Assembly (NCBI GenBank): GCA_964016885.1
Contig: OZ024754.1
Span: 34,472,001-34,536,000 of the forward strand
Direction of reading: 5' to 3'
DNA: 64,000 nt
Origin: Eledone cirrhosa
Lineage: Eukaryota
Shown here: piece by piece, positions 18,549-60,930 of the stretch
Position numbering within the stretch: the first letter of the stretch is position 1
Layout: every line of letters begins with the position of its first letter
Notes under the pieces: generated by a model
The model's database searches: none
Seen by the model: only the letters and a program-made list of their open reading frames with translations
Told to the model about the DNA's origin: nothing
Program-made: the position numbers and the translations under genes

Positions 18549-20299
18549 GCTAGGGATACAATAGTAGGTGTTTTCATGACATGTGAAATGGAGGTTATAG
18601 CTAGGGATACAATAGTAGGTGTTTTCATGACATGTGAAATGGAGGTTATAGCTAGGGATACAATAGTAGGTGTTTTCATGACATGTGAAATGGAGGTTAT
18701 AAACTAGGGATACAATAGTAGGTGTTTTCATGACATGTGAAATGGAGGTTATAGCTAGGGATACAATAGTAGGTGTTTTCATGACATGTGAAATGGAGGT
18801 TATAGCTAGGGATACAATAGTAGGTGTTTTCATGACATGTGAAATGGAGGTTATAAACTAGGGATACAATAGTAGGTGTTTTCATGACATGTGAAATGGA
18901 GGTTATAGCTAGGGATATAATAGTAGGTGTTTTCATGACATGTGAAATGGAGGTTATAGCTAGGGATACAATAGTAGGTGTTTTCATGACATGTGAAATG
19001 GAGGTTATAAACTAGGGATACAATAGTAGGTGTTTTCATGACATGTGAAATGGAGGTTATAGCTAGGGATACAATAGTAGGTGTTTTCATGACATGTGAA
19101 ATGGAGGTTATAAACTAGGGATACAATAGTAGGTGTTTTCATGACATGTGAAATGGAGGTTATAGCTAGGGATATAATAGTAGGTGTTTTCATGACATGT
19201 GAAATGGAGGTTATAAACTAGGGATACAATAGTAGGTGTTTTCATGACATGTGAAATGGAGGTTATAAACTAGGGATACAATAGTAGGTGTTTTCATGAC
19301 ATGTGAAATGGAGGTTATAGCTAGGGATACAATAGTAGGTGTTTTCATGACATGTGAAATGGAGGTTATAGCTAGGGATACAATAGTAGGTGTTTTCATG
19401 ACATGTGAAATGGAGGTTATAAACTAGGGATACAATAGTAGGTGTTTTCATGACATGTGAAATGGAGGTTATAGCTAGGGATATAATAGTAGGTGTTTTC
19501 ATGACATGTGAAATGGAGGTTATAAACTAGGGATACAATAGTAGGTGTTTTCATGACATGTGAAATGGAGGTTATAAACTAGGGATACAATAGTAGGTGT
19601 TTTCATGACATGTGAAATGGAGGTTATAAACTAGGGATACAATAGTAGGTGTTTTCATGACATGCGAAATGGAGGTTATAGCTAGGGATACAATAGTAGG
19701 TGTTTTCATGACATGTGAAATGGAGGTTATAGCTAGGGATATAATAGTAGGTGTTTTCATGACATGCGAAATGGAGGTTATAGCTAGGGATACAATAGTA
19801 GGTGTTTTCATGACATGTGAAATGGAGGTTATAGCTAGGGATATAATAGTAGGTGTTTTCATGACATGTGAAATGGAGGTTATAAACTAGGGATACAATA
19901 GTAGGTGTTTTCATGACATGTGAAATGGAGGTTATAGCTAGGGATATAATAGTAGGTGTTTTCATGACATGTGAAATGGAGGTTATAGCTAGGGATATAA
20001 TAGGTGTTTTCATGACATGTGAAATGGAGGTTATAGCTAGGGATACAATAGTAGGTGTTTTCATGACATGTGAAATGGAGGTTATAGCTAGGGATATAAT
20101 AGTAGGTGTTTTCATGACATGTGAAATGGAGGTTATAGCTAGGGATACAATAGTAGGTGTTTTCATGACATGTGAAATGGAGGTTATAAACTAGGGATAC
20201 AATAGTAGGTGTTTTCATGACATGTGAAATGGAGGTTATAGCTAGGGATATAATAGTAGGTGTTTTCATGACATGTGAAATGGAGGTTATAAACTAGGG
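18549..20299 (+). repeat. 51/52-bp minisatellite (~34 units)
   Basis: Unit GCTAGGGATACAATAGTAGGTGTTTTCATGACATGTGAAATGGAGGTTATA with G/AA and C/T variants; no spacers. Confidence 0.97.
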
Positions 20300-31029: not shown

Positions 31030-31645
31030 AAAAGGCCAGTCTTGTCACACACTATGACATAAAAGGCCAGTCTTGTCACGCACTATGACATAAATGGCCA
31101 GTCTTGTCACACACTAGGACATAAATGGCCAGTTTTGTCACACACTATGACATAAATGGCCAGTCTTGTCACACACTATGACATAAATGGCCAGTCTTGT
31201 CACACACTATGACATAAATGGCCAGTCTTGTCACACACTATGACATAAATGGCCAGTCTTGTCACACACTATGACATAAATGGCCAGTCTTGTCACACAC
31301 TAGGACATAAATGGCCAGTCTTGTCACACACTAGGACATAAATGGCCAGTTTTGTCACACACTATGACATAAATGGCCAGTCTTGTCACACACTATGACA
31401 TAAATGGCCAGTCTTGTCACACACTAGGACATAAATGGCCAGTCTTGTCACACACTAGGACATAAATGGCCAGTTTTGTCACACACTATGACATAAATGG
31501 CCAGTCTTGTCACACACTATGACATAAATGGCCAGTCTTGTCACACACTAGGACATAAATGGCCAGTCTTGTCACACACTATGACATAAATGGCCAGTCT
31601 TGTCACACACACTATGTCATAAAAGGCCAGTCTTCTCACACACTG
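31030..31645 (+). repeat. 31-bp minisatellite (~19 units), imperfectly palindromic unit
   Basis: Unit GACATAAATGGCCAGTCTTGTCACACACTA(T/G). Confidence 0.95.
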
Positions 31646-34190: not shown

Positions 34191-34764
34191 AATCAATCAA
34201 TCTCTCTCTGTCTCTCTTTATATATGTATATATATATTAGTGAAGGCATGTGGCTGAGTGGTTAGGGAATTGGATTCGCAATCGTAAGGTTGTGAGTTTG
34301 ATTCCTGGACCAGGTGATGCGTTATGTCCTTGAGCAAGACACTTTATTTCACGTTGCTCCTTCTACCTGGAGTTGCGACCGATAGGTAGTATTAGCAATT
34401 GGAAAGACCAACGGAAACATTGTTCCCTCGGTCCGATTTGACGAAAGTCGATCGTTCCTATATATATATATATTGCTGGGTTTCGACATCCGGAGGCTGG
34501 TCTATCGTGTAGGTGTCATGACAAAAAGTTCCCAGCACACACTGTAAATGTGGTTGGCATTTAGGAAGAGCATCCAGCCATAGAAAACCAACCAGATACT
34601 CTCCTATATTAGCGAGATCCAGTCACCTGACCCAACTTGCCTCGAATTAGCACAAACCCTTCGAACCCATGCTAACTTGGAAGATAGACGTTAATTGACA
34701 ATGATGATGATTGTTCAAGGAAACAACAAACAGAGGTACAAAGTCTTATATATATATATATATA

Positions 34765-35213
34765 ACGAAGGAAATGTGGTAAGGCACCAGGTGGACCATA
34801 ACGCACCAAAGTACTCAATACTTAGGGTAGTAGAGTGGGTAATAGGAACGAGTAGGACCCCGACGGCTGAGCTCAAGCCATTTCGACGGCTAATTTTGGA
34901 CTAAATGAAAATTTTTATCCTGGTATATGAATAGCCGAGCTTCTCAGGGGGTAATTCCATATATGGTAAAAGTGATTGTCACCTCTTTCTTCTACTGGCA
35001 GGTTCAGCTACCCCTTCCTTCCACAAATTGCCATGATAGAATTATGTGTCTCAACAACAGACTTTTGACCAATCCTTGTGACAATCACTTTTACCATATA
35101 TGGAATTACCCTCTGAGAAGCTCGGCTATTCATATACCAGGATAAAAATTTTCATTTAGTCCAGAATTAGCCGTCGAAACGGCTTGAGCTCAGCTGTCGG
35201 GGTCCTACTCATT

Positions 35214-35218
<5 letters not shown>
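34765..35218. mobile_element. Palindromic double-hammerhead element, family B
   Basis: 141-bp inverted arms at 34842-34982 and 35078-35218; flanked by (TA)n on both sides. Confidence 0.75.
35108..35203 (+). ncRNA. Type I hammerhead-like motif with full stem III, GUC site and variant core CUGAGAA
   Basis: ACCCT-CTGAGAA-G..CGGCTATTC[long loop]GAATTAGCCG.C-GAAA-CGGCT-TGAGCTC-AGCTG-TC^GGGGT. Inverted copy on - at 34857-34952. Confidence 0.65.
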
Positions 35219-35280
<62 letters not shown>

Positions 35281-53889: not shown

Positions 53890-60460
<6,571 letters not shown>

Positions 60461-60461
60461 A

Positions 60462-60930
60462 AATAAGATGATGTGGTTGAGAGGAAGATCAAAGCCTGGG
60501 CTGCGTGCTAGTGGAGTCTGTGCTGCATTACGGGTCTGAGACTTGGACACTGACCAAGAAACTCACTCAGATGGTGGATGGGTGCTACACGAGAATGCTG
60601 AGAATGTCTCTGAACATTAATCAGTATACACTGAGGATGAAGAACTCAGAGCTGTATGGGAGCATCCCAAAAGTCAGCTCGAAAGTGACACAGAGGAGAC
60701 TGAGGTTAGCTGGACATGCTCACCGACATCCAGAATTGACACTGCACTCAGTGCTGCTGTGGGAGCCCCTGCATGGACACACTGGAAGAGGAAGGCCGGG
60801 GTTAACATATGTTGATGCCCTAAGGACAGATGCTGGTCTGTTGGAGATGCAGGATATGGCAGCGATAGTGAGGGACAGAGACCGCTGGAGAGAACTCATT
60901 CATGGATGTCGGGTATTTTACCTGCCCTAG
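60462..60930 (+). mobile_element. RTE-like LINE 3' fragment (second family)
   Basis: VESVLHYGSETWTL...[12 protein letters not shown]...GRGRP...DRDRWR. Shorter copies at ~25656-25735 and ~26885-27125. Confidence 0.85.

Follow-up and report, generated by a model that had tools for sequence, protein, structure and literature searches.

A C3·A8 period in the hammerhead homologue of a Hydra-clade Penelope-like retrotransposon family of Eledone cirrhosa

Along the source lineage of a Penelope-like retrotransposon family in the genome of Eledone cirrhosa, positions 3 and 8 of the hammerhead motif went from a U3:A8 pair through a long stretch of C3·A8 mismatch and back to U3:A8, the remaining bases of the core staying the same all along. 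The copy from which the family is described here lies at 34765-35218 of the window, by which we mean the whole stretch of 64,000 nucleotides that was analysed, and its sequence features identify it as the 3' end of a Penelope-like retrotransposon of the Hydra clade, truncated on the 5' side, folded back and inserted in (TA)n. Its motif is classed, from the arrangement of stems and core bases, as a homologue of the type I hammerhead.

The copy sits between two (TA)n runs, which occupy 34747-34764 on its left flank and 35216-35250 on its right. From the left it comprises, on the minus strand, the 77-nt tail of the element's long 3' end (34765-34841), which ends 97 nt past the GUC site and recurs in many genomic copies, and an inverted arm bearing the hammerhead motif (34842-34982; stem I 34952-34948/34861-34857, core 34947-34941, C17 at 34862). 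These are followed on the plus strand by the last 237 nt of the element's 3' UTR (34982-35218), which stop 20 nt beyond the GUC site, at the short 3' end, and are 97-99% identical to long genomic copies (e.g. L003, L013 and L015). The copy accordingly has its long end on the left and its short end on the right, and the arm within the plus-strand part (35078-35218) matches the minus-strand arm over 141 bp with 5 mismatches. A transcript across 34765-35218 is predicted to form a single long hairpin of -286 kcal/mol, and since a read-through transcript would thus pair both arms with one another, the window copy itself is likely to be inert. A second, older insertion at 2653-2842 belongs to subfamily S2, the full copies of which carry U3:A8; the preliminary description had drawn on it when comparing stem III, but it folds back inside loop II and lacks a 5' core. 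The remainder of the window includes a 6.5-kb TA-rich microsatellite array with a very strong G-over-C skew (53909-60465) and two well-kept minisatellites, one of 34 copies of 51 bp with 96% matches (18549-20299) and the other of 20 copies of 31 bp with 95% matches (31030-31644).

The inverted arms had been recognized at the outset, each with a CUGAGAA core, a complete stem III and a GUC triplet, and the stems and core could be mapped on both of them. On the plus-strand arm three helices surround the core in the layout open at stem I that is characteristic of type I. Stem I is formed by 35108-35112 and 35199-35203, and one private C-to-U change in its 5' strand produces a U·G beside the core, position 35112 being C in nearly all raw reads. 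The core, C3 U4 G5 A6 G7 A8 A9, spans 35113-35119 and contains the C3·A8 mismatch. It is not joined directly to stem II as first proposed: the pair of G10.1 (35120) with C11.1 (35175) and a 2x1 internal loop intervene before the 6-bp stem II (35123-35128 with 35168-35173). Stem II encloses a loop of 39 nt, rather than the 30-35 nt given earlier, and it is in this loop II (within 35123-35175) that copies of the family are mainly truncated or folded back. G12 A13 A14 (35176-35178) lead into the 6-bp stem III (35179-35184 with 35192-35197), which carries a palindromic loop III (35185-35191) and runs into the GUC (35196-35198), with cleavage predicted after C17 (35198). The differences in stem III between the arms do preserve pairing, as G·U, but as one-sided C-to-T changes at CpG they give no evidence of covariation. 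The bases U4 G5 A6, a free N7, A9, G12 A13 A14, A15.1-U16.1 and H17 of a type I hammerhead are present. In the window copy C3·A8 stands where the Watson-Crick 3-8 pair is expected, and for this reason we do not call it a working hammerhead.

When the window was scanned with descriptors for C3:G8, U3:A8 and C3·A8 cores, the only matches were the two arms, and in the genome the control patterns, which were reversed, matched 0 times; the motif is therefore not a chance occurrence. Across 29 distinct copies 94.6% of 551 cells are paired, as against 19-51% in slid controls; pair counts in the same copies do not exceed those of shuffles (302/500 for pairing and 87/500 for the covariation score), and stem II has just one change on both sides of a pair, which concerns the S0 locus described below. 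Standard models miss the motif, as the preliminary description had anticipated: no hammerhead family is among the 5 Rfam matches to 34760-35220 at E<=10, and for the whole window no hammerhead is among the 150 matches listed of 345, which are microsatellite-driven microRNA families. The hammerhead is not the predicted minimum-energy fold of either window arm. Since stems II and III consist of identical five-base strands, a strand-swapped fold competes with it and is more stable by 7.7 and 5.5 kcal/mol in the two arms, the corresponding difference being 0.0 in an S7 copy and 1.1 in an S2 copy. Folding z-scores are unremarkable for the window arm (-0.75), an S4 copy and an S7 copy, and reach -2.99 for an S2 copy. 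As a separate observation, the partner swap between stems II and III (35123-35197) could serve as a switch by which the template escapes cutting.

A first look found 2,935 candidates for the arm in the 3.0-Gb genome. Long copies carry, 1.2 kb upstream of the hammerhead motif, a reverse transcriptase-endonuclease ORF with Hydra motifs, including a CxCx5C linker and, at the C terminus, a domain of GIY-YIG type with CxxC and CxH; in the ORF of L031, RWR and SDKT answer to the RWK-like and DKT motifs of the Hydra clade. Pfam returned no family for three pieces of this ORF, and the element protein, compared by eye, resembles published Hydra proteins. The assignment to the Hydra clade is accordingly drawn from motifs, and the insertions display what is expected of the clade, namely (TA)n sites, inverted truncated copies and an optional tail. 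We also considered a non-LTR retrozyme, i.e. non-coding tandem units of 170-400 nt, and rejected it, as long copies carry the reverse transcriptase-endonuclease ORF and there is no tandem array at the locus. Directly upstream of the Hydra copy in L031, and opposite to it, lies the ORF of a different element with a Pfam GIY-YIG match (L031:4528-5490, minus strand).

Two fixed end points occur among the genomic copies of the family, one lying 20 nt and the other 97 nt beyond the GUC site. Sixty distinct inverted pairs were found in the fetched loci, and 51 of them combine a long with a short end (4 are long-long, 3 short-short and 2 unscored). Exact pattern matches genome-wide number 45,079 for the 3' half of the motif versus 7,270 for the 5' core, and among 30 copies found by their 3' half 8 reach the 5' core, with 20 stopping within 17 nt of stem II. 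The two fixed ends, the long-short pairs, the stops near stem II and published descriptions of inverted truncated copies with tails together identify the "double hammerhead" of the preliminary description as an insertion footprint: its motifs lie on opposite strands and so make up no functional double ribozyme, and the arms represent the inverted truncation typical of Penelope-like elements rather than a unit. The sharp zone of cDNA termination in loop II produces MITE-like hairpins, most copies stopping or folding back a few bases from stem II. In a Penelope-like element of the anole, reverse transcription is reported to have two internal start sites, by which the tail is defined (PMC11167929). 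By a comparable route, the Eledone enzyme would nick (TA)n, cDNA would begin at the two fixed sites, one on each side of the break, most cDNAs would stop in loop II, and the two products would be joined head to head to give the inverted arms.

The core bases of the family were surveyed in three ways. Among 37 hits in 30 loci chosen by their endonuclease region, and hence blind to the core, 26 read CUGAGAAG and 8 read UUGAGAAG, the remaining 3 being unmatched by the expression; G8 occurs in none. A genome-wide pattern allowing Y3, N7 and R8 gave 7,270 cores, of which 5,410 are U3:A8, 1,796 C3·A8, 52 U3·G8 and only 12 canonical C3:G8 (64 with G8). A core-blind pattern gave 5,806 matches, and in the first 100 of these, with inverted pairs counted twice, U4, A6, A8 and A9 are present in all, G5 in 99 and G10.1 in 96, and position 3 is U in 75, C in 24 and G in 1, while N7 is G in 73, U in 13, A in 9 and C in 5. 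This is the base pattern expected of a hammerhead core. As N7 takes all four bases and the other core bases are fixed, the register is that of a C3·A8 core with N7 retained. Of the two registers first offered for CUGAGAA, the C3·A8 mismatch therefore holds. The other would read the core as CUGA-GA, with N7 lost, a canonical C3:G8 and an extra base before stem II; such a base between positions 9 and 10.1 is frequent in hammerheads of Penelope-like elements (PMC4209133), but here the base following UGA is G, U, A or C according to subfamily and the usual first base is U, which suits N7 with U3:A8 and not G8, making the loss of N7 barely credible.

CUGAGAA was correctly taken to be a natural variant rather than a private mutation, as shown by 957 exact 23-mers and by the presence of canonical C3:G8 in only 12 of the 7,270 cores, and a canonical CUGANGA consensus, which would have made this copy a simple mutant, is absent. 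Nor is CUGAGAA the consensus of the whole family, given that 74% of the collected cores have U3:A8, a published variant. Both states also occur at 35113 among raw DNA reads of a run under the same species label, 75 of 362 having U, and C3 can therefore not be an artefact of the assembly. Contigs of other organisms (X4 and X8) bear both C3 and U3 forms at low depth; as these organisms may be relatives and the DNA may equally have been carried over, the contigs were left out of the analysis. An old side subfamily, S1 (L185, L188 and L196-L198), carries U3·G8, the other mismatched state of positions 3 and 8. The oldest subfamily, S0, has 983 matches and is truncated before the core in 30 fetched loci; one further locus, of four fetched, has U3 and A8 with a damaged U4.

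The history of the mismatch was reconstructed from trees. A first tree, for which positions 3 and 8 were masked and loci L002-L034 excluded, covers 105 copies and about 300 nt and takes the form of a ladder of subfamilies with shrinking end branches. The second, of 52 chosen copies and likewise masked at positions 3 and 8, was rooted on S1 and omits sporadic single C3 copies. It gives the order S2 (U3:A8), then S3 and S4 (C3·A8), and finally S5, S6 and S7 (U3:A8), with S7 the youngest; the root of the ladder is set by 5 S1 copies and one S0 locus. The window copy belongs to S4. The C3 copies were defined as a group once the first tree was at hand, and forcing them together lowers the log-likelihood by 86 units (p-AU 2.7e-79), so that their monophyly is rejected. 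A tree of the endonuclease region (56 copies, about 1.1 kb upstream) repeats the order with weaker support, which indicates that the state of positions 3 and 8 was carried on coding source elements. Summed from the 52-copy tree, the C3 interval covers at least 0.19 of the about 0.51 changes per site along the backbone. The single reversion by a C-to-T change is no proof of selection.

Changes between subfamily majorities number 1 in 153 site-steps in the 5' half of the motif, 7 in 324 in the 3' half and 130 in 1,350 in the flanks and loop II. Inside the C3 interval the figures are 0/34, 3/72 and 34/300 (p 0.02 and 0.046 for the two halves), the conservation of the 5' half being in part a product of the sampling, in which a 5'-half pattern served to select many of the copies. 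One rival reading is that C3·A8 is a fully working core, in which a C·A pair resembling a wobble would match U3:A8 approximately in cutting, aided perhaps by the long stem III, by dimers formed through the palindromic loop III or by contacts of loop II with stem I. The unchanged 5' half in the C3 interval, the long persistence of the state, its about 1,800 copies, the near-constant pyrimidine at position 3 and purine at position 8 (with U3·G8 in the side subfamily) and the variation among hammerheads in tolerance of core changes (PMC3884650) are all in keeping with this reading. Single changes at positions 3 and 8 are, however, strongly harmful in the hammerheads tested (PMC11167929, PMC9901934), and the lineage went back to the U3:A8 that predominates among its cores, so that we regard a fully working C3·A8 core as rather doubtful.

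Weak cutting by C3·A8 is what the published mutants, together with predicted misfolding, suggest. In the CUGA/G8 region of a model hammerhead, every single or double mutant other than the G:C swap is low in activity (PMC9901934); in the anole element C3G or G8C abolished cutting and left insertion in vitro unaffected (PMC11167929); and in nature the C3-G8 Watson-Crick pair covaries to U3-A8 (PMC3088659). These mutagenesis data come from other hammerheads, in which U3:A8 was also weak, and this counts against reading them as evidence of weak cutting in C3·A8. As to folding, the predicted probabilities of stems II and III are 0.17 and 0.10 in S4, 0.98 and 0.91 in S2b and 0.76 and 0.75 in S7, and the hammerhead is predicted to fold well in S1, S2, S3a and S7 and poorly in S4, S5 and S6. 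Misfolding does not track the mismatch, for the early C3 subfamily S3a folds properly (0.92 and 0.89) and the U3 subfamilies S5a, S5b and S6 do so poorly (0.24-0.40). The youngest subfamily (S7; L204 and others, with end branches of about 0.004) has gained an A pairing next to G10.1-C11.1, with the hammerhead as the predicted minimum-energy fold, and may still be active.

On balance we favour the view that C3·A8 gave weak but non-zero cutting and was a tolerated state of the source lineage between two U3:A8 periods. Weak cutting was probably tolerated because the element is likely to be copied from uncut RNA. A genomic copy that spans the GUC does attest an intact bond in its template, uncut and re-ligated RNA being indistinguishable in this respect. 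Residual cutting would still have mattered, given that the other core bases stayed fixed, but no more of it than a C·A mismatch was able to provide. The same about 1,800 detectable C3·A8 cores, with U4, G5, A6 and A9 kept, also fit a ribozyme that works well.

It is also conceivable that the motif lacks catalytic activity, either throughout the family or during the C3 period, and is kept only as a protein-bound structure near the sites of cDNA start. The GUC site is spanned by all copies, no part of the motif is better conserved or more often copied than the 3' half, G10.1-C11.1 is predicted at low probability in most subfamilies, and cutting is dispensable for insertion in vitro in another Penelope-like element (PMC11167929). 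Protein binding alone, on the other hand, would not be expected to keep the exact catalytic pattern of the 5' strand, with N7 free and U4, G5, A6 and A9 fixed, and the hammerhead is the minimum-energy fold in the youngest subfamily; a dead motif thus appears quite improbable. One may also go further and propose that the unpaired C3·A8 core cleaves well enough for selection to have kept it through a third of the lineage's recorded history, the 3-8 pair being unneeded in nature, a proposition that we put forward only tentatively and ourselves consider unlikely. If true, the genome would hold a dated allelic series of one ribozyme (U3·G8, U3:A8, C3·A8 and U3:A8 again), and descriptors demanding a 3-8 pair would miss thousands of working motifs.

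The purpose of hammerheads in Penelope-like elements has been stated to be unclear (PMC8557442). In this regard the family offers a natural experiment, in which one source lineage gave rise to ordered subfamilies that differ at the 3-8 pair and have many copies each. If C3·A8 is crippled, amplification went on regardless and cutting would be nearly dispensable in vivo; if the C·A pair supports catalysis, the hammerhead core is wider than descriptors allow. Either outcome would be useful, and neither makes this a new kind of system.

The amplified C3·A8 subfamily is without a literature report that we could find, as is the loss and regain of the pair. Neither an uncompensated C3·A8 subfamily nor loss and regain along a lineage was found in the text available to us of PMC4209133 and PMC3088659, nor was C3·A8 found in the searched passages of PMC11014351, PMC7229834, PMC6765202 and bioRxiv 10.64898/2026.07.22.740005; Lunse et al. 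2017 (RNA Biol 14:1499) and Przybilski and Hammann 2007 (RNA 13:1625), which lie outside this search, may hold C3·A8 variants or rates. The U3:A8 form, by contrast, is already published. In the Cercyon elements of Schistosoma mansoni (Cervera and de la Pena 2014, PMC4209133) and in Perreault et al. 2011 (PMC3088659), U3-A8 replaces C3-G8 as it does in the Eledone family, in hammerheads that are likewise of type I, have a palindromic helix III region and escape the canonical descriptor; searches of Schistosoma elements are reported to have given about 1,300 of them (PMC4209133), and truncated Penelope-like elements are said to include pairs of motifs that lie 100-700 bp from each other on opposite strands (PMC4209133, PMC3088659). 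Those U3-A8 motifs are compensated pairs, and the Schistosoma motifs are minimal, whereas the Eledone family includes an uncompensated C3·A8 subfamily.

With PAc, a Poseidon element of the green anole (Frangieh et al. 2024, PMC11167929), the family shares two fixed 3' ends downstream of the hammerhead site and copies that span the cleavage site. PAc differs in belonging to another clade and in having a canonical core, a motif that overlaps the ORF start and tests in vitro, the Eledone family being known from sequence. Further close counterparts are the C-terminal EN+ elements of the Hydra clade, such as Hydra-1_Obim (Craig et al. 2021, PMC8557442), with which the family has in common the RWK-like and DKT motifs, the CxCx5C linker, the C-terminal GIY-YIG-type domain with CxxC and CxH, (TA)n targets, inverted truncated copies, a tail and a hammerhead near the 3' end. 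All Hydra hammerheads in File S2 of that paper have CUGANGA cores and loops II of 3-10 nt, in contrast to the Y3/A8 cores, 39-nt loop II and 6-bp stem III of the Eledone family, which also has a tail of 77 nt as against the 30-40 bp described for the clade and a length of about 3.5 kb as against generally <3 kb. The element works like other Penelope-like elements with hammerheads, and we class it among Hydra-type elements, its motif being a homologue of the type I hammerhead.
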